Part shown: piece by piece, positions 3,881-62,033 of the stretch
Numbering within the stretch: the stretch's first letter is position 1
How the letters are laid out: each line of letters opens with the position of its first letter
Origin: an uncultured Candidatus Saccharibacteria bacterium
GTDB lineage: Bacteria > Patescibacteriota > Minisyncoccia > Phycocordibacterales > UBA9973
Assembly (NCBI GenBank): GCA_964482735.1
Contig: CAYZYV010000003.1
Location: forward strand, 63,097 to 127,096
Reading direction: 5' to 3'
DNA: 64,000 bases
Notes under the pieces: model-generated
Databases searched by the model: none
What the model was told of the DNA's origin: nothing
Seen by the model: the letters and a program-made list of their open reading frames with translations, nothing else
Made by a program: the position numbers and the translations under genes

Positions 3881-4714
3881 ATGTTCAAGAAACATCAAAA
3901 TTCCAAAATTAAAGCTTTCACCCCCACACCTACTTTTAGAAAGCAACATAGTTGCGCGTCTACGACGCATTCTGAAAGTGGGTGTAGGGGGTTTACTCTC
4001 ATCGAACTCCTCGTCGTTGTCGCCATCATCGGCATACTCTCCGGAGTAGTCATTGCATCACTAAACAGTGCACGAGAGAAAGGAAAAATCGCAGCCATCA
4101 AGTCTACTCTCAAGAACATGCAATCTCAAGCCGAAATCACATATACTGATACAGGAAGCTATGCTTCACTATACAACTCTTCCACCTACGATTGTATCGG
4201 TCCATTAGCTAACATGGCTTCTAGCCTCACAGACAAAGGAGTAACAGTTAAATGTTATTCTAGAAACGATTCATCCCGTAATGATGTTTACTTAAGATTC
4301 GGCGCTACTGCTATCATCTACGATGCCAACGATTTCAAAGCATGGTCCACAGACCAAAACGGAGTAGTGACTTGGGATCAGAAAGGAGTAAATACTACTG
4401 GTGCTTATGTAGATACAGATGTATATTCAGGTATGACATATTCTGTTTCAACTACTGCGTGTACTACTGCCGGAGGAAGGTTGCCATCTTTGGAACAACT
4501 ATTTACTTTGGCAAGAGCTTATGGATCAGCTTCACTAGCTGCGACTGGTACCACTACCTACAAGCCTACAAGTGCAGGCTTCGTGGCGCACTACTATTGG
4601 TCTTCTACCATCGTCCCGTCTGATGGTTCGCTGGCTTACAGTGTGAGCTTTAGCAGTGGTAACGCCGTCACGCACTCTACTGCGAGCTCCGACTATGTCC
4701 GTTGTGTCCGGTAG
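3881..4714 (+). CDS. Type IV pilin-like protein (N-terminal GFTLIELLVV prepilin motif) fused to a C-terminal DUF1566/Lcl-like domain
   Basis: G|FTLIELLVVVAIIGILSGVVIAS is a class III signal / N-methylation motif. The C-terminus RLPSLEQLFTL...YWSST...AYSVSFSSG...YVRCVR resembles DUF1566. RBS aggagtg lies 13 nt upstream. Confidence 0.7.
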   Translation: MFKKHQNSKIKAFTPTPTFRKQHSCASTTHSESGCRGFTLIELLVVVAIIGILSGVVIASLNSAREKGKIAAIKSTLKNMQSQAEITYTDTGSYASLYNSSTYDCIGPLANMASSLTDKGVTVKCYSRNDSSRNDVYLRFGATAIIYDANDFKAWSTDQNGVVTWDQKGVNTTGAYVDTDVYSGMTYSVSTTACTTAGGRLPSLEQLFTLARAYGSASLAATGTTTYKPTSAGFVAHYYWSSTIVPSDGSLAYSVSFSSGNAVTHSTASSDYVRCVR

Positions 4715-33704: not shown

Positions 33705-36700
33705 ATGAATTATATAGAACAAATTCAAAAGTATTATAAAGATGAGAATAGTAGTGAGATGTCATACAGGACACCTTTTCAAAATTTTCTAGAAAGTATT
33801 TTTACGAAAGAGGATAAATATTTTGTTCAACATGACCAAAAAGCGATAGATGGTAATAAGCCAGATTTTATTATTTTGAAAAACAATATTCCTGTTTTAT
33901 ATATAGAAGTTAAAAAAGTAGGAGAAGATTTAGATAAAATAGAGAAGTCAAACCAAGCTGATAGATACTTCGGATATGACAACTTGATAATTAGTGATTA
34001 TATAAATTTTCGATTTTATAGATATGGGAAAAGATATGAAGAGGAAATTTCACTTGGTAAACTAAATAAAAATGAAAAAAGTATAGAAGAAGGGAATAAA
34101 GAAGAAGTACTTATTAAAACTATTCTAGATTTTACCAATTCTCATAAAGAGGAGATTAAATCAGGACGACACTTAGCAGAAATAATGGGTGGTAAAGCTC
34201 TTCGTATAAGGGAGAATATTTTTTACATGCTTTCATCTCAGAGTGATAGATTTGAAGAGTTGAATAAAATTAAAGAAGTTGTTAAGGAAAATCTTATTAG
34301 TAATATTTCTGATGAAGATTTTGCTGATATGTATTCTCAAACCCTCGTTTATGGTCTTTTTGCTTCTAGATATAATGACAAAACTGAAGATACTTTTTCT
34401 AGACATGAAGCGATAGATTTAGCACCAAAGACAAACCCATTTCTTAAAAAGTTTTTTGGACATATTGCAGGCGAATCTTTTCCAGACAGGCTTCGCTTTA
34501 TTGTGGATGAGCTTTGCGAGGTTTTTTCTCATGCGGATGTTCATAAACTTCTTACGGATTTCTATGGAAAAGAGAAGGACAATAAGGATCCAATTATTCA
34601 TTTTTACGAAGATTTCTTGAAAGAATATGACAGTAAAAAGAAAATGGATATGGGCGTTTTCTATACCCCGAAGCCAGTTGTGGATTTTATAATTCGTGGA
34701 GTTGATTATATTTTAAAAAATGATTTTAGCTTATCTGATGGTTTGGTAAGCAAAGAGAAAATAAAATTGGAGAAAAAGATAATAGACGAGAAAACTGGTA
34801 AAGATAAAAAAATTGAAGAAGAATATCACAAAGTCCAAATCTTAGATATAGCCACAGGTACAGGGACTTTCTTAAACGAAACAATTTCTTTTATTTATAA
34901 TTCTTTTAAAGAAAAAGGACAGCTTGGCGGGTGGGATAGTTATGTAAATGAACATTTACTTCCACGACTTCACGGTTTTGAAATAATGATGGCTTCCTAT
35001 ACTATCGCTCACTTGAAGCTTGGAATGACTTTAGAAGATACAGGTATAGATACAGATAAACTAAATAAAAGATTAGGGGTTTATCTTACTAATACCCTTG
35101 AAGAAGCGAAAGATTATTCTAACCAAGGGACACTTTTTGGTTTTATGGACTCTATTGCTGAAGAAGCAAAAAGTGCTTCAAAGATAAAGAAAGAATATCC
35201 AATAATGTGTGTGATAGGCAATCCTCCTTATTCTATTTCTTCACAGAACAAAGGTGAATGGATTTTAAAATTGATAGATGATTATAAAAAAGATTTAAAT
35301 GAAAAGAAAATAAATATAGATGATGATTATATAAAGTTTATTCGTTTTGGACAATATATGGTAGATAAAAATGGAGGAGGAATTCTTGCATATATTTCTA
35401 ATAATTCTTTTATTTCTGGTGTTACTCACAGGAAGATGCGTGAATCTTTATTAAAATCTTTTGATAAAATTTATGTTTTAGATTTACATGGGAATGCTAG
35501 ATTAAAGGAAGTTTGTCCAGATGGAAGCAAAGACCAAAATGTTTTTGATATTATGCAAGGAGTCTCTATAAATATTTTTGTTAAAAGTGAAAATAAAAAA
35601 GAAGGACTTGGAAAAGTTTATCATAGAGATTTATATGGGAATAGAAAAGATAAATTTGAATTTTTATTTAATACAAAATTTGAAGATACAAAATGGAAAG
35701 AATTAGAATACTTTGAGCCTTATTATTTCTTTGTACCCAAAGATTTTGGACTAAAAGATGAATATGATAAAGGATTTAAAATAGATGATTTTTTTATGGA
35801 ATATAATTCTGGAATTCAAACAAAAAGAGATGACTTAGCAATTTCTTTTGAAAAAAAAGAAATGGATATCAAAATTAATGATATTTTAAATTTAAACAGC
35901 CTAGAACTTAAATACAAATACAAATTACCAGAAGATGGGAGAGATTGGAAAATTGATTGGGCAAAAAAGGATTTAAAAATTGACTATCAAATAATAAATA
36001 TTTTATATAGGCCATTTGACATAAGATATGTTGCATACACGAGAAGATCTAAGGGCTTGATTGCATACCCAAGAGAAAAAATAAATCAATATATTGTTAA
36101 TAAAGATAATTTATCATTGTTAACTTGCAGAAATCAAGATTTTAATGATATTTGTTTGATAACAGATAAAATTTCTGATCTTAGGACATATTCTAATCCA
36201 GGGTCGCTTGGAACTGATTATGTTTTTCCTCTTTGTCTTTATAAAAATCAAGAAAAAATTCCAAACTTAAATAAAGAAATTTGGGGGAAAATAAATGAGG
36301 AAGTTGGGGAAACCACACCAGAAAACATTTTGGATTATATTTATGCTGTTTTACATAGCCCCAAATACAGAGAAAAATACAAAGAATTTTTGAAAATTGA
36401 TTTTCCGCGAGTTCCTTATCCAGAAGGCAAAGAAAAATTTTGGAATTTGGTAAAAATTGGCGAGAAATTACGAGGCTTACATTTGATGATAGATAAATCT
36501 ATTAGTGATTTTATCACTACTTATGCTGTGTTGGGTAACAACTTGGTAGATAAAATTTCTTATAAAGATGGAAATGTTTATATAAACAAAGATCAGTATT
36601 TTGGAAATGTTCCCGAAATTGCTTGGAATTTCTACATAGGTGGTTATCAGCCAGCTCAAAAATATCTTAAAGATAGAAAAGGTAGAATTCTCACAAGTGA

Positions 36701-36782
36701 CGAAATAGAACACTATCAGAAAATCATAAAAGTTCTCGTTGAGACGGATAAAATAATGAGGGGAATAGATAAAATAAGATAA
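33705..36782 (+). CDS. MmeI-family Type IIL (IIG) restriction-modification enzyme: PD-ExK endonuclease, gamma-class N6-adenine methyltransferase and target-recognition domain in one polypeptide
   Basis: The N-terminus KPDFIILKNNIPVLYIEVKKVGEDLDKIEKSNQADRYF parallels the MmeI D...EXK nuclease and DLDKA...DYF region. Methyltransferase motif I ILDIATGTGTFL and motif IV VIGNPPYS. 1025 aa. Confidence 0.8.
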   Translation: MNYIEQIQKYYKDENSSEMSYRTPFQNFLESIFTKEDKYFVQHDQKAIDGNKPDFIILKNNIPVLYIEVKKVGEDLDKIEKSNQADRYFGYDNLIISDYINFRFYRYGKRYEEEISLGKLNKNEKSIEEGNKEEVLIKTILDFTNSHKEEIKSGRHLAEIMGGKALRIRENIFYMLSSQSDRFEELNKIKEVVKENLISNISDEDFADMYSQTLVYGLFASRYNDKTEDTFSRHEAIDLAPKTNPFLKKFFGHIAGESFPDRLRFIVDELCEVFSHADVHKLLTDFYGKEKDNKDPIIHFYEDFLKEYDSKKKMDMGVFYTPKPVVDFIIRGVDYILKNDFSLSDGLVSKEKIKLEKKIIDEKTGKDKKIEEEYHKVQILDIATGTGTFLNETISFIYNSFKEKGQLGGWDSYVNEHLLPRLHGFEIMMASYTIAHLKLGMTLEDTGIDTDKLNKRLGVYLTNTLEEAKDYSNQGTLFGFMDSIAEEAKSASKIKKEYPIMCVIGNPPYSISSQNKGEWILKLIDDYKKDLNEKKINIDDDYIKFIRFGQYMVDKNGGGILAYISNNSFISGVTHRKMRESLLKSFDKIYVLDLHGNARLKEVCPDGSKDQNVFDIMQGVSINIFVKSENKKEGLGKVYHRDLYGNRKDKFEFLFNTKFEDTKWKELEYFEPYYFFVPKDFGLKDEYDKGFKIDDFFMEYNSGIQTKRDDLAISFEKKEMDIKINDILNLNSLELKYKYKLPEDGRDWKIDWAKKDLKIDYQIINILYRPFDIRYVAYTRRSKGLIAYPREKINQYIVNKDNLSLLTCRNQDFNDICLITDKISDLRTYSNPGSLGTDYVFPLCLYKNQEKIPNLNKEIWGKINEEVGETTPENILDYIYAVLHSPKYREKYKEFLKIDFPRVPYPEGKEKFWNLVKIGEKLRGLHLMIDKSISDFITTYAVLGNNLVDKISYKDGNVYINKDQYFGNVPEIAWNFYIGGYQPAQKYLKDRKGRILTSDEIEHYQKIIKVLVETDKIMRGIDKIR

Positions 36783-36785
36783 TTT

Positions 36786-37358
36786 ATGGAAGAAAATAAA
36801 CAAAAAATTGTATATGTGTTTATTGATGCTTCAAACCTTTGGCAAGCACAAAAAGTAAAAGGTAGATTATTTGATTTTGAAAAACTTAAATTTTATTTAA
36901 AGAAAAATTTTAATGCATTAGAATTTCAAGTATTTTATTACACAGCTTATCCCAAAGAAGGAACTAGGGAAAACAGTCAAGATGGAAAACATAAATTTTT
37001 TACTTATCTAAAAAAGGGTTTAGGTTTTATTGTTAGAAAAAAAGAATTAAAGAGAATTGTAGAACATAACGAGCAGGGAGACATAATACAAGAAAAAGGA
37101 AATATGGATGTTGAGATGACAATAGATGCAATCCATTTTTGTAAAAAATACGATATTGCTGTTTTGTTTACGGGAGATTCTGACTTTTTAGCATTGGTGA
37201 ATTATATAAGAAATGGAAGTAAGAAAGTTTTTATATTTTCGTCTAAAAACAATGTATCTCAAGAGCTGAGGACTGGAGGAGATGGATATTTTGATGTATT
37301 AGATATAAAAGAAGATATATGGGGGAGAGAACTAAAACATAGAGATGATAAATCTTAA
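36786..37358 (+). CDS. NYN-domain (LabA-like, PIN-fold) nuclease
   Basis: VYVFIDASNLW...AVLFTGDSDFLALVNYIR...KVFIFS matches the NYN/PF01936 pattern. Starts 4 nt after the RM gene stop. Confidence 0.75.
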   Translation: MEENKQKIVYVFIDASNLWQAQKVKGRLFDFEKLKFYLKKNFNALEFQVFYYTAYPKEGTRENSQDGKHKFFTYLKKGLGFIVRKKELKRIVEHNEQGDIIQEKGNMDVEMTIDAIHFCKKYDIAVLFTGDSDFLALVNYIRNGSKKVFIFSSKNNVSQELRTGGDGYFDVLDIKEDIWGRELKHRDDKS

Positions 37359-37493: not shown

Positions 37494-38759
37494 ATGGAAA
37501 AAATTTTTAATTTTAAAATAGAAAAAAAAATAGAAGGGGCTTTAGGGCGGGCTGGTGTTTTATCTACACCGCACGGAGATATACTGACGCCTTCTTTTGT
37601 GGTTGTTGGAACGAAGGCAACCGTTAAGAGTGTTTTGCCTGAAAAATTAATAGAAAATAAAATCCAAGTAGTTCTCGCAAATACTTACCATCTTTATCTT
37701 CAACCTGGAGATGAATTAATAAAAAAAGCTGGTGGGTTACATCAGTTTATGAATTGGCATGGCCCTATGATGACAGATTCTGGAGGGTTTCAAGTTTTTT
37801 CTTTAGGAGTAGCTTATGGTAAAGAATTATCCAAAGTTGTTTCTATTAGTGATCCAAGCTTGCTTATTACAGAGAGATCTTCGGCGGATGACGGAGTTCC
37901 TAAGCTAGCTACAGTTGGTAATGACGGAGTTTCTTTTAGATCTCACATAGATGGTTCTTTGCACTATATTACCCCTGAAAAATCAATAGAAATACAACAT
38001 AATTTAGGGGCCGATATAATGTTTGCTTTTGATGAATGTACTTCACCTGTAGAAAACAATAGGTATCAAGAAGAGGCTTTGTTTCGCACTCATGCATGGG
38101 CAAAGAGGAGCCTAAAAAAGCATTTAGAATTGGAAAATGAAAAGATTTTACAGAGAGAAGGTAATGATATTTCTATGACAAAACAACAAGCCCTTTTTGG
38201 TATTGTTCAAGGTGGAAGGAATGAGGAACTTCGTAAAAAGTCAGCAAAAGAGATATCTGAAATGCAAATAGACGGGAAGGGGTTTGATGGTTTTGGAATA
38301 GGAGGAAGTTTTGCTAAAGAAGATATGTCGACAGCATGTAAATGGGTTAATGAAATTTTACCAGAAGATAAACCAAGGCATTTGCTTGGTATAGGGGAGC
38401 CAGAAGATTTATTTATGGGAGTAGAAAATGGAGTAGATCTTTTTGACTGTGTGGGTCCAACAAGAATAGCTAGAAATGGAAGTTTATTTACACGATTCGG
38501 GAAAATAAATTTGCTAAATGAAAAATATAAAAATGATTTTTCTCCTATTGAAGAGGGTTGTAAATGCAGTACTTGTAAAAATTATACAAAAGCATATTTG
38601 TCACACTTATTTAGATCTAAAGAAATGTTAGGAGCGACGTTAGCTACTATTCATAATGTTTATTTTATAAACAAGCTCGTTCAAGATATGCGAACGTCCA
38701 TATTAGAAAATAGATTTACTGAGTTTAAAAATAGTTTTTTAAAAGATTATCAGAAATAA
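37494..38759 (+). CDS. tgt: Queuine tRNA-ribosyltransferase
   Basis: GDILTPSFVVVGTKA, MTDSGGFQVFSLG, zinc site CKCSTCKNYTKAYLSHL. Start at MEKIFNF (alternative upstream ATG at 37416). Confidence 0.85.
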   Translation: MEKIFNFKIEKKIEGALGRAGVLSTPHGDILTPSFVVVGTKATVKSVLPEKLIENKIQVVLANTYHLYLQPGDELIKKAGGLHQFMNWHGPMMTDSGGFQVFSLGVAYGKELSKVVSISDPSLLITERSSADDGVPKLATVGNDGVSFRSHIDGSLHYITPEKSIEIQHNLGADIMFAFDECTSPVENNRYQEEALFRTHAWAKRSLKKHLELENEKILQREGNDISMTKQQALFGIVQGGRNEELRKKSAKEISEMQIDGKGFDGFGIGGSFAKEDMSTACKWVNEILPEDKPRHLLGIGEPEDLFMGVENGVDLFDCVGPTRIARNGSLFTRFGKINLLNEKYKNDFSPIEEGCKCSTCKNYTKAYLSHLFRSKEMLGATLATIHNVYFINKLVQDMRTSILENRFTEFKNSFLKDYQK

Positions 38760-39023
38760 AAAAAGATCGTACACACAGCACGAGGCGTACGATCCTGGGG
38801 AACTTGGGTGGGCCTGCGCTTATAACTGGCCCTATTTTGTAAAACATACAGTAGTTTTGTAAAAAGGAAAACCTCAAGGAAATAAAGAACATTCAGCACC
38901 TATAACTACTTAAGAACAAATTCAAAACTACTGTAGTTTGTTGATATAATTATAGCAAATTAAGTTTAAAAAGTCAAATAGAAAATGAAAGCAAAAATTA
39001 CCCTTATATGCTAAGATATTATT

Positions 39024-39080
39024 AGTTTTATGTCCAAAAACATTTTCAAACTTAAGAGTTCATACTCTCCGGCTGGAGAC
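39024..39080 (+). repeat. Duplicated copy of the uvrB 5' end (RBS region plus the first 17 codons)
   Basis: tagttttATGTCCAAAAACATTTTCAAACTTAAGAGTTCATACTCTCCGGCTGGAGAC differs from 39150-39207 by two substitutions, tat/tac and gat/gac, both synonymous. Confidence 0.85.
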
Positions 39081-39156
39081 CCCAGAAGTAAAACAAAAAA
39101 TCGGATGCATTTTTTGTTTACTACGGGGCGGGAAGTGGTAGTATAGTTTTATCTTT
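39081..39156 (+). mobile_element. Miniature imperfect-palindrome element (copy 1), immediately upstream of the uvrB ATG
   Basis: CCCCAGAAGTAAAACAAAAAAT-cggatgc-ATTTTTTGTTTACTACGGGG (20-bp stem) followed by the tail cgggaagtggtagtatagttttatcttt. Confidence 0.6.
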
Positions 39157-41316
39157 ATGTCCAAAAACATTTTCAAACTTAAGAGTTCATATTCTCCGGC
39201 TGGAGATCAGCCGAAAGCTATTTCAGAGTTACTCAGTGGTCTAAATAGGGGGATGGAAAAGCAAACTTTATTAGGGGCAACAGGAACAGGTAAGACTTTT
39301 ACCGTAGCAAATGTAATAGAAAAATGGAATAAACCAGTTTTGGTCATTGCACACAACAAAACTCTTGCAGCCCAACTCGCTCAAGAATTTAAAGAATTTT
39401 TTCCAGATGCAGCAGTTCACTATTTCGTTTCCTATTATGATTATTATCAACCGGAGGCGTATATGCCAATATCAGATACATATATAGAGAAAGATGCCCA
39501 GATTAATAAAGAGATAGATCGTTTAAGACATGCCACAACCCAATCTCTCTTAACAAGAAAAGATGTGATTATTGTGGCTTCTGTGTCTTGTATTTACGGG
39601 CTTGGTTCTCCTTCGGAATATGAGAAGGTAAATTTAAGATTAGAAAAAGGAATGACTTTGGATCGATTAGGATTAATGCGAAAGCTTATTGAGATTCATT
39701 TTGAAAGAACTAATGCAGATTTAAATCCAGGTTCTTTTAGATCTATTGGTTCAAAAGTAGAGATAATGCCTGTTTCAGATAATTTTATTTTTCAAGTTGA
39801 ATTTTCTGGTAATAAAATTTCAAAAATATCAAAAGTGGACCCTGTTTCTTCAAAAGTTTTGGATGAACCAGAAAACATTTTTGTCTTTCCAGCAAAGCAT
39901 TTTATAACAGAGAAAAAACAAGTTGAGATTGCTATTAAAGACATTAAAAAAGAGTTAAATGATCAGGTTAAAAAATTTGAAAAAAAAGGAAAACTTTTAG
40001 AGGCTGAAAGAATAAAAAGGCGTACTAACTACGACTTGGCAATGATTAGAGAAGTAGGTTATTGTAATGGAATTGAAAACTATTCTCGGCATTTGTCTGG
40101 CAAGAAAGAAGGAGAACCTCCTGAGACACTCCTTTCCTATTTCAAAGAAGATTTTTTAACTGTAATAGATGAATCACATGTTAGTTTACCTCAGCTTCAA
40201 GGTATGTATAGGGGTGACGCTTCGAGAAAAAATACCTTGGTGGAATATGGTTTTAGGTTACCATCTGCTAAAGATAATCGGCCTCTAAAATATCCTGAAT
40301 TTGAAGAAAGGGTTGGCCAGGTAATATATGTATCTGCTACTCCAAGCGACGAAGAAAAGAAATCGAGTGGTCAAATAGTAGAGCAAATCATTCGCCCAAC
40401 AGGCCTTGTGGATCCAGAGGTTATCGTAAGACCTGTGAGTGCAGGTAAAGATTTTTCAGCCAAATCATCAGTAGATGATCGCTCGACTCATTTGAGTACA
40501 AATGAGTCGAGGGGACAAATACAAGATTTTATCTTAGAGGCAGAAGAAACAATTAAAAAAGGTTATCGTGTTTTAGCAACTACTCTTACTAAAAAAATGG
40601 CAGAAGACCTGTCTAACTATTTAAAAGAAAAAGGATTAAAAGCCGAATATCTACACAGTGAGATTAAAACAATAGAGAGGATTCAAGTCTTAACCTCATT
40701 TAGAAAAGGTGATATAGACATTTTGGTTGGAGTAAACCTGCTTAGAGAAGGTTTGGATTTGCCAGAAGTGGCATTGATAGGGATATTAGATGCAGATAAA
40801 GAAGGTTTTTTAAGATCGGAAACTTCTTTAATTCAAACCATAGGACGAGCAGCAAGAAATGCCGAGGGGCGAGTGATTCTGTATGCTGATGAAATGACGA
40901 AGTCGCTTAGTAAGGCAATAGAAGAAACAAATCGTCGTAGATCTATCCAGTTGGACTATAATAAGAAAAATAACATTACCCCAAAAACTATAATTAAAAA
41001 TATAAAAGATATCACAGACGATCTCGAAAATAAACACGAAAAAGTTGTAAACGCAGAACTTGGTTTTGATTTAGAGTTATTTAAAAAAGCTTTTGATAAA
41101 AGCAAGTCAAACCTAGATAAAACTGAAACTGAAAGCTTGAGAAATTTAAAAATTTCTGACGAAGAAAGAAGTCTAAAAGTCTTTGAGAAGATTATTAAGA
41201 TAAAAGAGAAGGAAATGAATCGAGCTGTAAAAAATTTAGATTTTGAAACAGCAGCTATTTTGAGAGATGAAATAATCAGTCTAAGGGGTTTATTAGGAGA
41301 AAAAAACAATAAATGA
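39157..41316 (+). CDS. uvrB: Excinuclease ABC subunit B
   Basis: LLGATGTGKTFTVANVIE helicase motif I, beta-hairpin region, C-terminal UVR domain. Confidence 0.9.
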   Translation: MSKNIFKLKSSYSPAGDQPKAISELLSGLNRGMEKQTLLGATGTGKTFTVANVIEKWNKPVLVIAHNKTLAAQLAQEFKEFFPDAAVHYFVSYYDYYQPEAYMPISDTYIEKDAQINKEIDRLRHATTQSLLTRKDVIIVASVSCIYGLGSPSEYEKVNLRLEKGMTLDRLGLMRKLIEIHFERTNADLNPGSFRSIGSKVEIMPVSDNFIFQVEFSGNKISKISKVDPVSSKVLDEPENIFVFPAKHFITEKKQVEIAIKDIKKELNDQVKKFEKKGKLLEAERIKRRTNYDLAMIREVGYCNGIENYSRHLSGKKEGEPPETLLSYFKEDFLTVIDESHVSLPQLQGMYRGDASRKNTLVEYGFRLPSAKDNRPLKYPEFEERVGQVIYVSATPSDEEKKSSGQIVEQIIRPTGLVDPEVIVRPVSAGKDFSAKSSVDDRSTHLSTNESRGQIQDFILEAEETIKKGYRVLATTLTKKMAEDLSNYLKEKGLKAEYLHSEIKTIERIQVLTSFRKGDIDILVGVNLLREGLDLPEVALIGILDADKEGFLRSETSLIQTIGRAARNAEGRVILYADEMTKSLSKAIEETNRRRSIQLDYNKKNNITPKTIIKNIKDITDDLENKHEKVVNAELGFDLELFKKAFDKSKSNLDKTETESLRNLKISDEERSLKVFEKIIKIKEKEMNRAVKNLDFETAAILRDEIISLRGLLGEKNNK

Positions 41317-49610: not shown

Positions 49611-50978
49611 ATGCCATTAAACAAAGGAAATAAAATACAAACCGTTAAGTATTCTCCTCCTCCTCCAAATCTTCCAATGCTTGGGAAGGTAGATCCTAGC
49701 CAAGCTGTTTTTATTGGAAGAACAAATTATGTAGCAGCCTTGGAAGAAAAGAGGTTTGTTTTTGGTATTAATCAAAACGATAGAAGACGTCATGTTTATA
49801 TTGTAGGTAAATCTGGGGTAGGTAAATCAAAATTAGAAGAAGTAATGATTCGTCAGGATATTGCTTATGGCAGAGGTGTATGTGTTATCGATCCGTACGG
49901 AGAATTAGTAGAAGAGATATTAAATTTTATTCCTAAAAATAGAGTAAATGATGTTTGTATCTTTAATCCTGAAGATGTTAATTTTCCTGCATCCTTTAAT
50001 CCATTTTCAAGGGTAGAACCGACATTCAGACACCAATTTACTCAAAGTATCGTAGAAATTTTACAGAAACAATTTGGAAATGATTGGAGTCCTAGAATAG
50101 AGCATGTGATTCGTTTTTCAGTATTAGCTTTGCTTGATTGTGAAAATTCAAACATGCGAGGGATGATTCGTATTTTGATTGATAAAAAATATCGAGAAAA
50201 GGTTATAGATAATATAAAAGACGACATGGTTCGTCATTTCTGGAAAGAAGAGTTTGAAGAGTGGTCTAAGAAGTTTGATTCTGAAGTAATAATTCCTATC
50301 GTGAACAAGTTGTGGCAATTTCTTTCTAACCCGATGCTTACCAACATATTTGGTCAAAAGGAAAACAAAATAGATTTTGAAAAAATAATGAATAATAAAA
50401 AAATTATTCTTGTTAACTTAGCTAAGGATAAAATCGGAGATGAAAATGCTTCATTCTTGGGTGCCTTGTTTATGACAAAAATTAGACAAGCAGGTATGTC
50501 TCGAGCAAAGTTGAATCCTTCAGAAAAGAATGATTTTTATCTTTATATTGATGAATTTAATAATATAATAACTGATGGTTTTGAAAACATTTTATCTGAG
50601 TCTAGAAAATATGGAATTAATTTAACTATTGCCCATCAATATATCGGTCAATTGTCTCAAAAAATAGAACAAGCAGTTTTAGGTAATATAGGAACTATAA
50701 TTTTGTTTAGGGTTGGGGGAGACGATGCTACCAAGTTGCGATCTGAATTCGCTCCTATTTTTGATGTTAAAGATATGATTAATTTAGGAACAGGAGAGTT
50801 TTACATTAAGATGATAATAAATGGTGAAAGTTATGACCCATTTTCATCAGAAACCTTAGAAGTTTTACCGACACCACACACATCTTTTAGAGAAGAAGTT
50901 TTAGGTTCTTCTAGAAGATTCTATGCTACCACAGAAGAAAACGCTTCTAAAATTATGGCTGAAGATGAATCTTCTTAA
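49611..50978 (+). CDS. Soluble FtsK/HerA-superfamily P-loop ATPase resembling T4SS coupling-protein (VirD4/TraG/TrwB) DNA-binding ATPase domains; paralogue 1
   Basis: Walker A VYIVGKSGVGKS, Walker B LYIDEFNNI, arginine finger and sensor SESRKYGINLTIAHQY. No TM segments. Confidence 0.55.
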   Translation: MPLNKGNKIQTVKYSPPPPNLPMLGKVDPSQAVFIGRTNYVAALEEKRFVFGINQNDRRRHVYIVGKSGVGKSKLEEVMIRQDIAYGRGVCVIDPYGELVEEILNFIPKNRVNDVCIFNPEDVNFPASFNPFSRVEPTFRHQFTQSIVEILQKQFGNDWSPRIEHVIRFSVLALLDCENSNMRGMIRILIDKKYREKVIDNIKDDMVRHFWKEEFEEWSKKFDSEVIIPIVNKLWQFLSNPMLTNIFGQKENKIDFEKIMNNKKIILVNLAKDKIGDENASFLGALFMTKIRQAGMSRAKLNPSEKNDFYLYIDEFNNIITDGFENILSESRKYGINLTIAHQYIGQLSQKIEQAVLGNIGTIILFRVGGDDATKLRSEFAPIFDVKDMINLGTGEFYIKMIINGESYDPFSSETLEVLPTPHTSFREEVLGSSRRFYATTEENASKIMAEDESS

Positions 50979-51026
50979 AATAAAGCTTTTTAGTTTGTTT
51001 TAAATAAGGTATAATAAAAGTAATTT

Positions 51027-53111
51027 ATGGATAACGAAATTCCTAATAATAAAGATATCACTTATTTTGCGAAGACTAATTTTCGTAATACAAATACTGT
51101 TTTTGGAATAAAAAGAAAAGATCGTCGTCAGCACATGTATGTCCTCGGTAAATCTGGTACCGGTAAATCTGTTTTGTTGCATAATTTAATAACTCAAAAC
51201 ATTAAAAATGGAGAGGGCGTTTGTGTAATAGATCCTCACGGAGAACTTGCTGAAGAAATACTAGAATTGATACCAGAAAATCGCATAAAAGATGTTATTT
51301 ATTTTAACCCGGCAGATCCTGATTTTCATATAGGTTTTAACGTTCTACAGATTGATGACCCTAAGCTTAAGCACTTAGTTGCTTCTGGTATTATGGGTAT
51401 TTTTACTAAAATTTGGGCAAATGCTTGGAGCTCTCGTATGGAGTACATTTTAAACAATGCTATTTTGGCCCTCTTAGATACGCCAGGAACTACACTTTTG
51501 GGGATACCTCGTCTTTTAGTCGATAAAGAGTATCGTCAAATGATTATAGGCAATCTAAAAGATCCAATTGTTAAATCTTTTTGGTTGCACGAATACGAGG
51601 AATGGAGAGACCAATTTAGAAATGAAGCGATTGCCCCTATTCAAAATAAAGTTGGACAATTTTTGTCTACTTCTATCATTAGAAATGTGGTTGGTCAATC
51701 AAAATCAACAATTGATATCTTCAAAATAATGAACGAAGGTAAAATCTTTATTGTTAATGTTTCAAAAGGAAGAATAGGGGAAGATAACTCAGCTTTGCTT
51801 GGAGGTATGATTATTACCAAGCTTCAATTGGCAGCTATGGAGAGAGTTCGTATTCCTGAAAACGAGAGAAGAGATTTCTATCTTTATGTTGATGAATTTC
51901 AGAACTTTGCTACTGAATCTTTTGCCAACATTCTTTCTGAAGCGAGAAAGTATCGTTTAAATTTAATTATTGCTCACCAATATATAGCTCAAATAGCAAA
52001 CTCTGAAGGTTCCAAAGTTTCTGATGCAGTTTTTGGTAACGTTGGAACAATGATTATTTTTAGAGTAGGAGCAGAAGATGCCCAGTTTTTGGAAAAAGAA
52101 TTTGAACCAGAATTTACAGCTCAAGACTTGGTTAGCTTACCAAATTACAATATCTATTTGAAATTAATGGTAGATGGTGTAACTAGTCGTCCTTTTTCAG
52201 CAATAACTTTACCACCAATGGTTTCTGTTGATCCTGACAATGATACTAAAGAAAGAATCATAGAGTCCTCAAGGGTCTTGTATGCACGATCACGAACCGA
52301 AGTAGAATCAGAGATAACCAAATGGAGTACCACTCTTCAGACAAACGAAGGTGAAGCTAAATATAAAGTAGAGTGTACAAACTGTAAAAAGCAAACTACT
52401 GTTCCTTTTGAACCAAAGGAAGGAAAACCCGTTTACTGCAAGGAGTGTTTAATAAAAATAAAAAGCGGGGAGTTAAAACCAGAAAAAGGATTTTTTGTAC
52501 CAAAGACCAACAATCAAGAAAATAAAGAAGCTGTAGCTTCTCTCGCTTCTTTAGGTATAGAATTCAAATCAGATATTAATCATAATAACAGAGATAATTT
52601 TTCTAGAAGACAAGAACAAAAAACAAACCCAGATCACAATCAACCAAAAAATAGTCATTCTTTTAATCCAAAAGAAAATCCAAGAAATAATAATGATTTT
52701 GAAAGAAGAAAAAGTTCTGGGCCATCACCACTTCTTCGTGGTTTGTTGGAAAAAATAAAATCAGGACAAGTTTCAGAGATAAAAGAAGAAAAAATAGATC
52801 TAGTAGAAGAGAAAGTAAAAACACCTGAACCTGTTTCTTTAGCTACTCTTAAATCAGATAATCCTAGCGATAAAAACACAATGATTTCAACTAAAGAAAT
52901 TTCAGATGCTCATTTATCGACCTTGAAAGACGCTTTAAGTAAAATCACAGACAAGCAAAACTCATTTGATAACTCAAAAAAAGAGCCAATTCAAAATAAT
53001 ACTGAAGTAAAGGCCGAAGATAATCAAAACGACACCTCTGCCCCTTCGTGGCAAAACAAAAAAACTGTCAAAGAAGTCCCCGAAGAAGTATTGAGAAAAG
53101 TTCTAGAATAA
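51027..53111 (+). CDS. Paralogue 2 of the same ATPase family, with a C-terminal CxxC...CxxC zinc ribbon and a ~230-aa low-complexity (N/K/E-rich) tail
   Basis: MYVLGKSGTGKS, LYVDEFQNF, SEARKYRLNLIIAHQY; ECTNCKKQ...CKEC. Confidence 0.55.
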   Translation: MDNEIPNNKDITYFAKTNFRNTNTVFGIKRKDRRQHMYVLGKSGTGKSVLLHNLITQNIKNGEGVCVIDPHGELAEEILELIPENRIKDVIYFNPADPDFHIGFNVLQIDDPKLKHLVASGIMGIFTKIWANAWSSRMEYILNNAILALLDTPGTTLLGIPRLLVDKEYRQMIIGNLKDPIVKSFWLHEYEEWRDQFRNEAIAPIQNKVGQFLSTSIIRNVVGQSKSTIDIFKIMNEGKIFIVNVSKGRIGEDNSALLGGMIITKLQLAAMERVRIPENERRDFYLYVDEFQNFATESFANILSEARKYRLNLIIAHQYIAQIANSEGSKVSDAVFGNVGTMIIFRVGAEDAQFLEKEFEPEFTAQDLVSLPNYNIYLKLMVDGVTSRPFSAITLPPMVSVDPDNDTKERIIESSRVLYARSRTEVESEITKWSTTLQTNEGEAKYKVECTNCKKQTTVPFEPKEGKPVYCKECLIKIKSGELKPEKGFFVPKTNNQENKEAVASLASLGIEFKSDINHNNRDNFSRRQEQKTNPDHNQPKNSHSFNPKENPRNNNDFERRKSSGPSPLLRGLLEKIKSGQVSEIKEEKIDLVEEKVKTPEPVSLATLKSDNPSDKNTMISTKEISDAHLSTLKDALSKITDKQNSFDNSKKEPIQNNTEVKAEDNQNDTSAPSWQNKKTVKEVPEEVLRKVLE

Positions 53112-60581: not shown

Positions 60582-60682
60582 GATATTAATACTATCTTAA
60601 CTTATACTTTTAATCAAATAATAATATTGGTGCATTTTTAAACAAATTCTGATAATATAACGATTATGAGTTTATTAATCGG

Positions 60683-60791
60683 CCCCAGAAGTAAAAATTT
60701 AAATCGTTTGCACTTAAATTTTACTACGGGGTAAAAGGTGATATTTATTAAGTTTTTTATCAAATTAGATATTTAGTAGACAATTAATGTT
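60683..60791 (+). mobile_element. Miniature palindrome element (copy 2) immediately upstream of the ychF ATG, preceded by a 19-nt duplicate of the ychF start (60664-60682)
   Basis: CCCCAGAAGTAAAAATTTAA-atcgtttgcac-TTAAATTTTACTACGGGG, then the tail taaaaggtgatatttattaagttttttat... The upstream ttATGAGTTTATtAATCGG matches ttATGAGTTTATcAATCGG at 60790-60808. Confidence 0.6.
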
Positions 60792-61904
60792 ATGAGTTTA
60801 TCAATCGGCATTGTAGGGCTTCCAAATGTTGGGAAAAGCACATTATTTAATGCTTTAACAAAAAAGGGGGTTCCTTCAGAAAATTATCCATTTTGTACAA
60901 TTGACCCATCCGTAGGGATTGTGGCTGTTCCTGATGATCGTCTTTGGAAATTGTCTGATTTTTCCAAGTCTGCAAAAACTATCCCAGCGGCAATAGAATT
61001 CGTAGACATTGCCGGTCTAGTTAAAGGTGCTTCAAAAGGGGAAGGGTTGGGAAATAAGTTTCTCGCAAACATCCGTGAAGTTGATGCTATATTGGAGATG
61101 GTAAGAATATTCCCAGTAAAGACAGAGAGGACAAATGAAATAATTCACGTTTATGGAAACGTGGATCCACTTCGAGATATTGAAGTTATAAACTTAGAAC
61201 TAATTCTTGCTGACTTAGAAACGGTGGTAAAAAGAAGAACTAATTTATCTCATGACTTAAAAAGAGGAGTGAAAGATGCCGTGATAGAGGATAAAGCTCT
61301 TGTAAAATTAGAAATTGCTTTTGAAAAAGCTCAAATGGCAAATACTGTTTCTTTTGATGAAAAAGAGATAGAGAAAATAAAAATGTTGAATCTTTTAACA
61401 ATGAAGCCATTTATCTATGGATTGAATAAAAGAGGTGAAGGTGGAAATTTAGATGAAACTGATCCAGAGACTTTCAAAATGGTGACTGACTATATTAAAA
61501 GTACTGGGTCTACTTATGTAATTGTTGATGCAAAAATTGAAGATGAATTAAAAGATTTTGAAGGAGAGGAAAAAGAAATACTTCGAAAAGAAATGGGGGG
61601 AGATGATGATGGTATTAATAGCCTTATTAAAGAAGGGTACAATCTCCTTGGACTAGAGACTTATTTTACGACAGGAGAAGATGAGACACGTGCTTGGACT
61701 ATCAAGAAGGGAAGCACAGCTCCTGTGGCAGGAATGGCTATACATACAGATTTTAGAGATAAATTTATAAGGGCTGAAGTAGTTAATTGGCAAGAATTAT
61801 TAAACGCTGGAAGCTATGCCGAAGCTCGGGCCAAAGGAAAAATCAGAACAGAAGGTAAAGAATATATCGTTAAGGATGGGGATGTAATAGAATTTAAAAT
61901 ATAA
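60792..61904 (+). CDS. ychF: Ribosome-binding ATPase YchF (Obg family, TGS domain)
   Basis: GIVGLPNVGKSTLFNALT, NYPFCTIDP; C-terminal TGS ...YIVKDGDVIEFKI. Confidence 0.9.
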   Translation: MSLSIGIVGLPNVGKSTLFNALTKKGVPSENYPFCTIDPSVGIVAVPDDRLWKLSDFSKSAKTIPAAIEFVDIAGLVKGASKGEGLGNKFLANIREVDAILEMVRIFPVKTERTNEIIHVYGNVDPLRDIEVINLELILADLETVVKRRTNLSHDLKRGVKDAVIEDKALVKLEIAFEKAQMANTVSFDEKEIEKIKMLNLLTMKPFIYGLNKRGEGGNLDETDPETFKMVTDYIKSTGSTYVIVDAKIEDELKDFEGEEKEILRKEMGGDDDGINSLIKEGYNLLGLETYFTTGEDETRAWTIKKGSTAPVAGMAIHTDFRDKFIRAEVVNWQELLNAGSYAEARAKGKIRTEGKEYIVKDGDVIEFKI

Positions 61905-61992
61905 CTTTATTTAGTCGTAATAAAATAAACAATCACTTCTCGTTCCGTAGTAAACTTTAAAAGTATTTTGTTTTTTAAAGTTTTACTACTGG
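61905..61992 (-). mobile_element. Miniature palindrome element (copy 3, inverted orientation) just after the ychF stop. A diverged duplicate of the last 12 ychF codons follows at 61994-62032
   Basis: Minus strand: CCAGTAGTAAAACTTTAAAA-aacaaaatac-TTTTAAAGTTTACTACGG, then the tail aacgagaagtgattgtttattttat. The duplicate gttaaagatggagacgtaatagaattcaaaatctaa differs from the real end gttaaggatggggatgtaatagaatttaaaatataa at 5 positions, all synonymous. Confidence 0.6.
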
Positions 61993-62033
61993 GATTGTTA
62001 AAGATGGAGACGTAATAGAATTCAAAATCTAAT

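Follow-up and report, generated by a model that had tools for sequence, protein, structure and literature searches.

Short hairpin-forming repeats of ~50–150 bp that lie mostly beside genes include REP/REPIN, the Correia repeats of Neisseria, RUP/BOX, and ERIC. Here, we analyze a hairpin element that interrupts uvrB in a 64,000-nucleotide stretch of contig CAYZYV010000003.1 (assembly GCA_964482735.1), referred to below as the window. The element shares with the known repeats a short, hairpin-forming sequence adjacent to genes. Those repeats are not characterized by duplication of the terminal coding segment of the neighboring gene, whereas the element lies between two copies of such a segment. 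The duplicated segment is 11–73 nt in length, ends at the boundary of an open reading frame (ORF), and acts like a second allele of the gene end, which distinguishes the element from those repeats.

Individual families differ from the element in further respects. Correia elements carry outward promoter boxes, 26-bp terminal repeats, and a fixed TA duplication; the element has a promoter-like box in its tail and neither the 26-bp terminal inverted repeats nor the TA duplication. REPs have a GTAG head beside the stem and are tied to a gene for RAYT, a Y1 HUH transposase. The minus strand of the element reads CCCC-GTAG-TAAA (CCCCGTAGTAAA, followed by the stem), which bears a suggestive likeness to the GTAG head, and no RAYT gene was found within the 64-kb window. 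Miniature inverted-repeat transposable elements (MITEs) are defined by target-site duplications whose fixed length reflects the mobilizing transposase, a description that the 11–73-nt repeats of the element do not fit. PATE sequences derived from IS200/IS605 contain two different subterminal hairpins and insert 3' of a fixed 4–5-nt target without duplication; the element has a single hairpin, duplications, and A or AC targets.

Four other systems resemble the element in part. Rickettsia palindromic elements land in frame within the coding genes of a reduced genome, and their sequence ends up in the translated protein. The element likewise places a palindrome within genes without destroying them. 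It does so instead by duplicating the gene end, and the ORF that enters it is a dead end whose frame varies among copies. A duplicated gene end, with one copy restoring the gene, accompanies integrating phages and islands aimed at a gene end, such as e14 and phage 21 in E. coli icd, and free-standing homing-endonuclease insertions in organelle genes, such as Allomyces atp6 with its duplicated C-terminus. The two gene-end copies in these cases differ mainly synonymously because they come from different lineages. These insertions share with the element a double gene end in which one copy is restoring and the other displaced; however, they are kilobases long, encode an integrase or endonuclease, and occupy one target, whereas the element is ~60–110 bp in length, non-coding, and present at 20 or more gene ends. 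The G+C-rich palindromic clusters of yeast mitochondrial DNA are optional, spread by gene conversion, are sometimes tandem, and need no enzyme of their own. Like the element, they are short palindromes whose feet are rich in G+C while the surrounding genome is rich in A+T, but they have very short target repeats and no tie to gene termini or promoter-like tails. Diversity-generating retroelements are common in bacteria of the Candidate Phyla Radiation (CPR), and their targets (a variable repeat at the gene 3' end, a hairpin, and a template repeat) also place a gene-end repeat beside a hairpin. The element is found mostly at 5' ends. We rejected this candidate because the differences between repeats are mixed, mostly synonymous, and not adenine-specific, and the window contains no reverse transcriptase.

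The duplicated start of uvrB

The intact uvrB gene (39157–41316, plus strand; 719 amino acids in the ORF list) contains the UvrB Pfam domains and has homologues with up to 98% identity. As proposed in the original prediction, the start of the gene is present twice, with one ATG at 39157 and another at 39030, 127 nt upstream. A repeat search matched 39009–39079 to 39136–39206 (71 nt, 89% identity without gaps, spacing 127), and BLAST of the region against the window returned a match of 53 nt with 98% identity (E = 9e-22). Positions 39030–39079 are the same as 39157–39206 save for TAC/TAT at 39065/39192, and 50 of 51 coding bases agree between the start copies. The earlier account had counted a second substitution, gac/gat at 39080/39207. 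This difference is ambiguous because C39080 is also the first of four Cs that open the element in nearly all members of its family. Two of the seven bases that precede the ATGs differ (tagtttt versus tatcttt; the former begins at 39023, one position before the coordinate given originally, the rest of that description being accurate). If a 6-nt gap is allowed, the likeness of the two copies reaches ~9–12 nt 5' of the ATGs.

The hairpin element interrupts uvrB after codon 17. Because the gene start is repeated past the element, uvrB stays whole. The displaced start, which we designate X' (39021–39079, plus strand), comprises a leader of ~9 nt, the ATG at 39030, and 16.7 codons that end with A39079; it is continuous with the native upstream region and identical in a closely related strain (L114). 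The hairpin of this first copy of the element (copy 1; 39080–39128, plus strand; CCCCAGAAGTAAAA...TTTACTACGGGG) scores 85 bits against a covariance model of the family. Its 49 nt form 4 + 14 pairs, interrupted by an AGA/AC internal loop and a single bulged A, and folding as DNA gives −12.2 kcal/mol (z = −2.7). A conserved outer stem encloses 8 variable inner base pairs and a loop related to the usual family loop TCGAATGCA. A tail of 28 nt separates the hairpin from the uvrB ATG. Its conserved core occupies 39129–39144 on the plus strand (CGGGAAGTGGTAGTAT; columns 51–66 of family alignment A2), and the functional start, designated X (39145–39206, plus strand), continues into the gene. The idea that everything between hairpin and ATG belongs to the element thus holds for the core up to ~39141–39144 (...GAAGTGGTA); the last 9–12 nt (TAGTTTTAT...) appear to belong to the duplicated gene segment. 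The upstream ORF (39030–39146) runs for 38 codons, enters the element, and stops 10 nt before the real ATG, which bears out the view of the upstream copy as a truncated pseudo-start with the inserted element lying between it and real uvrB.

Comparison with relatives reveals that the start of uvrB is duplicated only together with the element. Seven uvrB lineages (L118, L119, and L131–L135; 82–88% protein identity) have the same gene order, a single start, and no element, and we found no relative with a duplicated start that lacks the hairpin. The duplication is present in all four element-bearing lineages. A 98%-identical strain, represented by the independent assemblies L114–L116, has the same uvrB architecture as the window, and the more distant uvrB genes of L078 and L111 (77–82% identity) are interrupted by the element after precisely this codon, likewise with a duplicated start. 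In tandem arrays with a unit of ~126 nt, three gene ends alternate with two elements; such arrays were observed at uvrB in L111 (5150–5460) and at the 3' end of another gene in L074 (1–260).

A family of hairpins at gene ends

The motif CCAGWAGTAAA, followed after a gap of 8–38 nt by TTTACTACGG, occurs three times in the window (0.00 expected from shuffles). A covariance-model search of the whole window with filters off found no further copies. All three lie at gene ends with duplications, namely the start of uvrB and the start and stop of ychF (60792–61904, plus strand). Copy 2 (60683–60789, plus strand; 76 bits) consists of a hairpin at 60683–60731 and a 58-nt tail directly upstream of the real ychF start. 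The displaced ychF start precedes it at 60664–60682 on the plus strand (ttATGAGTTTATTAATCGG, 19 nt) and contains TTA in place of the TCA of the real start; strain L120 has TCA in both. Copy 3 is in the opposite orientation (61905–61993, minus strand; 61 bits), with its tail (61905–61944) facing the ychF stop codon and its hairpin at 61945–61993. The functional member of its duplication is the real 3' end of ychF at 61866–61904 on the plus strand (IVKDGDVIEFKI, then the stop). The displaced 3' end (61994–62032, plus strand, 39 nt) retains the stop codon and ends 1 nt before the ATG of the next gene. It differs from the real end at six positions (T>C, A>G, A>G, C>T, C>T, and C>A), all of which are synonymous.

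Relatives of ychF contain both elements at 99% identity, the 3' element alone at 91%, and neither at 87%. We considered whether ychF and the inverted copies 2 and 3 constitute one cassette. This is ruled out by relatives that lack copy 2 (L122–L127), in which L122–L124 have the 3' element only and L125–L127 have neither; these patterns indicate that the two ychF insertions are independent. The 3' element of the 91%-identical relatives is a short-hairpin version at the same site. In L122–L124 (at ~3485–3600 in L122), it is reduced to a minimal element, CCCCAGTAGTAAAGCAAAGCTTACTACGGGG, without the inner stem and conserved loop, which are therefore dispensable for persistence at this site. The displaced ychF ends of the window and L122 differ by seven synonymous changes and one conservative change.

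Pattern scans returned 30 loci from a genome collection and 83 from a metagenome collection. By our own estimate, ~34 matches would arise by chance in 596 Gb (596e9 × 2 strands × 31 gap lengths / 4^20), so many of the 30 genome matches are noise. We recognized real members by complementarity of the stem, CC...GG flanks, and a conserved tail. About 70 distinct copies form a clear family by these features; nearly all come from metagenome-assembled genomes of Paceibacterota/Parcubacteria, including the 693-kb assembly RAAC4_OD1_1. Three matches in viral contigs were all due to chance and lacked a hairpin. The foot of the family hairpin consists of CCCC, the AGA/AC internal loop, and AGTAAA paired with TTTACT, and the inner stem varies while remaining paired. 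The 3' tail reads GGGGC-R-N-GAAGTG, often completing an extended −10 box, and the base before CCCC is A in ~64 of 73 copies. Pairing across 40 copies of the 45-nt subfamily holds in 97.5% of cells, 73 of them changed on both sides. None of 500 shuffles equaled this covariation and slid controls reached 31–58%; the stem is supported by covariation. Rfam searches of the whole window at gathering thresholds and of 38700–39400 at E-values up to 10 gave no family that covers 39080–39156, and a full-text search of the published literature found nothing relevant to such a repeat. Copy 1 very probably belongs to an undescribed family of small palindromic repeats of Paceibacterota/Parcubacteria, a group of ultra-small CPR bacteria in which it occupies the ends of numerous housekeeping genes.

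Two groups of sequences resemble the family without flanking repeats. A hairpin with the same foot (CCAGTAGTAAAAGC…GCTTTACTACGG) occurs in rRNA operons of Parcubacteria and Moranbacteria (L013, L014, L027, L028, L047, and L079) on the strand opposite the rRNA; in L027, L079, and one L047 copy it lies ~20 nt past the point where 16S rRNA appears to end. The match to the pattern may be due to chance, or it may hint at where the element came from or at the protein that binds it. L008 (5900–7400) contains a variant of the element with a longer shared tail (…GGAACATTTGAACCCTTCGGCA… and TCTCTAATTCGCGCG…AATAGGCGAATAGT) in two direct-orientation copies that flank a P-loop kinase-like gene.

The arrangement of the duplications follows several rules across the family. 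A direct repeat of at least 11 nt ends 0–2 nt before CCAG in 38 of 73 distinct copies; its length is 11–67 nt, or up to 73 with gaps, and 17 of the 38 pairs have no mismatch. The remaining copies are intergenic and have no detectable repeat. A gene start lies at most 200 nt downstream of the tail in 40 copies, and 14 copies are directed at the stop codon of a convergent gene. The tail side holds the intact ORF in 26 copies at starts and in ~7 at stops, where the tail points to the gene's stop codon; in no clear case is the intact ORF on the hairpin side. Because orientation at 3' ends should escape selection, this asymmetry is probably mechanistic. The outer boundary of the repeat is the start codon (0–7 nt upstream) or the stop codon, and the inner boundary is A, AC, or ACC. 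Throughout the family, the hairpin-side copy X' is the cut-off original gene end and the tail-side copy X is continuous with the intact gene.

X and X' differ in the manner of alleles. Codon differences between them comprise 49 synonymous and 19 non-synonymous changes, and base differences number 13, 11, and 53 at the first, second, and third codon positions (53 of 77 at the third). They include CGG/AGA, a two-step synonymous exchange of arginine codons. The non-coding sequence beside the repeats has no clear similarity. Some displaced copies do decay, as illustrated by the TTA in ychF of the window and by the uvrB pseudo-start of L117, which is frameshifted and has no ATG. Decay of a target-site duplication as the whole story is ruled out by the codon-position bias. 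As a signature of an undescribed CPR-wide hairpin family, duplication of gene ends is unusual.

The distribution of the element also bears on whether the uvrB arrangement was inserted at all. The upstream ORF crosses a stable hairpin and ends 10 nt before the real ATG, as might be expected of a regulatory leader (an upstream ORF with an attenuator hairpin) that evolved locally at uvrB. Such a leader is absent from the seven related uvrB loci, the same element is found at unrelated genes and reversed at 3' ends, and neither the frame nor the stop position of the upstream ORF is conserved across copies. The element's distribution largely refutes this explanation, which we regard as very improbable.

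An artefact of metagenome assembly, in which strain variants are joined, is scarcely conceivable. The identical uvrB architecture was recovered in assemblies made independently, from different samples and with different pipelines (L114, L115, and L116), the architecture occurs at many genes in many projects, including RAAC4_OD1_1, and its junctions are exact family-wide. What speaks for an artefact is that L117 may be a mis-join and that close ychF relatives are mostly on short contigs that break near elements. Indeed, the closest ychF relatives (91–99% identity, including L120, L121, and P0121–P0127) are mostly contigs of 1.7–2.7 kb that end in or near elements, although one close lineage is on an 11-kb contig. 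The repeats of the element seem to break short-read assemblies.

Recurrence of the element and breakpoints at the hairpin foot

Several insertion sites are shared between genomes. Sites hit in two to four genomes each are uvrB after SPAGD, uvrA after GARTH, the ychF 3' end, and ClpP; others lie in genes whose products start with MPPFN, MPI, MHHIYH, or MA(G/S)TKE and in a gene ending with VATxIIEKRK. Copies at the same site resemble each other more closely than copies at different sites, both in the distal tail (72% versus 59% identity, p = 2e-11) and in the inner stem (75% versus 64%). Copies within one genome have diverged, and the three in the window differ throughout their variable parts. 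Together, these patterns argue for a small number of founding events, after which the element was inherited or exchanged at homologous sites, and against ongoing transposition inside genomes.

Comparison of close strains places changes in sequence identity at the hairpin foot. Between the window and L114, blocks of 100% identity alternate with blocks of ~90% in a mosaic. Identity is 96–99% up to the end of the uvrB pseudo-start and 87–94% over the next 800 nt past the hairpin; the hairpin itself differs at 14 of 49 positions, with changes that compensate each other. From the first C of the element rightwards, L117 and L114 have 100% identity over more than 6 kb. The left flank of L117 (within 1–470) differs and contains a tRNA-Ser region followed by the decayed uvrB pseudo-start, which reflects either a rearrangement between copies of the element or an assembly join. 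The window and L120 are ~97% identical across ychF and 92–98% identical in all other compared segments. The 27-nt spacer from the ychF stop to the core of copy 3 has no clear similarity between them, and the 40-nt tail is 55% identical. Judged from these alignments, the spacer appears to have been replaced between 97%-identical strains, and the hairpin foot behaves as a recombination breakpoint.

A Pfam scan of the 49 ORFs in the window detected no domain of a transposase, integrase, reverse transcriptase, or HUH-family nickase, the last being the class that includes relaxases, IS200/IS605-type transposases, and the enzymes of rolling-circle replication. If the element were a classical non-autonomous transposon of the MITE type, a transposase acting in trans would make staggered cuts, and gap repair would generate the flanking duplication. 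This model readily accommodates a palindromic body that resembles terminal inverted repeats, direct repeats around most copies, the preference for A or AC targets, repeat pairs without mismatch (17 of 38), and relatives with empty sites. It has difficulty with repeats of 11–73 nt that always have one boundary at an ORF end, with an orientation that is strict even at 3' ends (7 to 0), where selection should not care, with repeat differences that are allele-like, and with copies that are diverged within a genome and yet related at the same site across genomes; in addition, no transposase is encoded in the window. We therefore consider a MITE unlikely. Variable repeat length, ORF-end boundaries, asymmetry, allele-like repeats, site-specific lineages, and breakpoints at the foot are together a poor fit to a transposase with a fixed stagger, and for this reason we favor an origin and spread based on recombination.

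We tentatively propose that the element and its adjoining gene end are gained and exchanged as a unit by homologous recombination of the host, a mechanism inferred from the sequences compared here and one that we see as possible rather than probable. No dedicated transposase would take part, and new junctions would be rare. To form one, a broken or invading strand of the gene would copy an element-bearing template (element, spacer, and gene end) in a one-ended reaction primed by homology. Synthesis would stop at the hairpin foot, and the end would be sealed to the resident gene through 1–3 nt of microhomology (A, AC, or ACC before CCCC), leaving the resident end as X'. The resulting X'-element-X unit, with its conserved coding flanks, could then move by homologous recombination or gene conversion into the same gene, even in diverged genomes, and recombination between the repeats would delete it cleanly. 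The conserved core of the element would serve as a crossover point at which the tail-side gene end is repeatedly replaced by other alleles; such replacement would account for the allele-like differences between X and X'. The explanation as a whole, combining a new palindromic family with a recombination-based origin and spread, is one to which we give slightly less than even odds.

Several points weigh against this proposal. The recombination mechanism is deduced from end products. Model bacteria recombine homologous arms of 11–60 nt inefficiently. Vertical inheritance with repeated loss, instead of horizontal spread, could account for recurrence at the same site. The strong preference for A before the element and the exact 5' boundary would also fit a sequence-specific nickase encoded outside the 64-kb window. 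Finally, identical repeat pairs lose similarity abruptly at the start codon, which is the predicted start of transcription; simple homology fails to explain such a stop, which might indicate an RNA intermediate. Both an RNA route and a site-specific nickase encoded elsewhere in the genome are serious rivals to recombination.

The nickase would belong to the HUH class and act by one-ended transfer of the rolling-circle, relaxase, or IS91 type. It would nick at A|CCCC beside the hairpin and displace or transfer the strand that extends from the nick via the tail into the adjacent gene. The far end of this strand would integrate by homology, and the enzyme would join its 5' end to a nick-like A|C site in the resident gene. 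An exact 5' end with variable extent on the tail side, A, AC, or ACC at the joint, a tail that always faces the intact gene, exchanged segments that begin at the hairpin foot, and the tandem X-element-X-element-X arrays in L111 and L074 would all follow from this scheme. The targets, however, share A or AC only, and the nick would fall 5' of the hairpin foot, which differs from well-studied oriT sites. The window contains no HUH, Rep, or relaxase domain; it does contain two VirD4/TraG-like ATPases, but these are common in CPR genomes. We judge one-ended transfer by a nickase to be an unlikely account as well.

An RNA-mediated route would begin with a nick in the template strand that primes reverse transcription on a leaderless mRNA to its 5' end, followed by a jump to the element RNA. 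The product would be ordered native flank, X', element, X, and gene, with X beginning exactly at the transcription start. In agreement with this order, the left boundary of the repeat in identical pairs is 0–7 nt before the ATG and coincides with the transcription start predicted in this genome (TGnTAnAAT, 6–7 nt, ATG), and joints with 1–3 nt of microhomology are typical of template jumps and target priming. The same route leaves the 3'-end copies, with their boundary at the stop codon, unexplained; allele-like differences and replacement of the spacer require DNA exchange anyway, and the window encodes no reverse transcriptase. We find it quite improbable.

If recombination is responsible, it is tempting to speculate that the element is transposase-free selfish DNA that carries its own homology arms, a natural knock-in cassette for the same gene in any genome, although we regard this extension as doubtful. 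Insertion would then proceed by host recombination regardless of neighboring genes, and the hairpin foot would be an inherent site at which repair synthesis halts and its end is joined. Element-level selection would preserve the coding-like appearance of the 'dead' copy, which would explain why change in displaced copies is almost exclusively synonymous.

Promoter-like tails and genomic context

The original prediction held that the element supplies the ribosome-binding site and presumably the promoter of uvrB. We found no Shine-Dalgarno sequence, whereas a promoter-like box does lie in the tail, which makes the second half of the claim plausible. The tail of copy 1 contains the extended −10-like TGGTAGTAT (39136–39144), which lies 16 nt past a −35-like TTTACT (39117–39122) and 12 nt before the uvrB ATG. 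Sigma-70-type promoters have −35 and −10 hexamers 16–18 nt apart or an extended −10; the candidate here (TTTACT, 16 nt, TG-G-TAGTAT) matches 8 of 12 hexamer positions plus the TG and falls below the threshold of the promoter scan. Of 40 family members, 12 have a full extended −10 in this register, compared with 0.8 expected when tails are shuffled.

A native promoter-like site (38921–38950, plus strand; TTCAAA, 18 nt, TATAAT, preceded by TG) lies upstream of the displaced uvrB start and scores 10 of 12 in the promoter scan. L118 and L131, which lack the element, share its conserved block, TATAATTATAGCAAATTAAGTTTAAAAAGTCA. The old start of uvrB is a 38-codon dead end behind this native promoter. 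Neither strand of the copy 1 hairpin has a T-run, and the terminator scan reported no intrinsic terminator there, so read-through from the native promoter is possible. It is plausible from these signals that the tail of the element drives uvrB; we grade this role no higher because the native promoter also survives and scores more strongly. Gene starts in the window typically read TGnTAnAAT, 6–7 nt, ATG and have no Shine-Dalgarno sequence (for example at 3881, 41329, 46341, 49611, and 57827), and this genome seems to use leaderless mRNAs as a rule. The intact gene would probably be expressed through the promoter-like tail as a near-leaderless mRNA, with read-through from the native promoter as a possible second route.

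The region upstream of uvrB has two other features. A perfect 13-nt inverted repeat (38847–38859 / 38923–38935; TACAGTAGTTTTG / CAAAACTACTGTA) has arms 63 nt apart, the second of which overlaps the −35-like part of the native promoter-like site. A G+C-rich, conserved non-coding block (38760–38900; …GGGCCTGCGCTTATAACTGGCC…) lies just past the tgt terminator and may be a small RNA or a regulatory site. It has a sub-threshold SraC/RyeA-like match in Rfam (27.9 bits; gathering score, 37), and its core, GCCTGCGCTTATAAC, is also found in the element-free relatives L118, L131, and L134.

The window has a G+C content of 33% and contains ordinary housekeeping genes of the Paceibacterota/Parcubacteria type, including gyrB, rpoB, rpoC, rpoD, dnaG, mreB, tgt, and uvrABC. 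Between mreC and tgt (33705–37358) lie a gene for a Type ISP / Eco57I-like restriction-modification protein of 1025 amino acids and an NYN-domain gene. Both are absent from the otherwise syntenic L114–L119, which indicates a strain-specific insertion. Two adjacent genes for VirD4/TraG/TrwB-like coupling-protein ATPases, followed by a lamin-tail-domain gene, occupy 49611–53111; no relaxase was seen in the window.

To our knowledge, CPR bacteria (Patescibacteria) have tiny genomes with few insertion sequences. A widespread repeat that resides inside essential genes, among them uvrA, uvrB, ychF, clpP, gatB, and tsaD, without killing them is unexpected in this group. Its presence has practical consequences, since annotation acquires short false ORFs at gene starts and contigs break at the elements. 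The element may also serve as a marker of recombination, in which displaced copies are dated fossils of earlier alleles and hairpin feet mark the breakpoints of exchange. The leaderless promoters and portable promoter-like tails bear on gene expression in CPR bacteria. If homologous recombination does drive the spread of the family, it would represent a mode of mobility that needs no enzyme encoded by the element.

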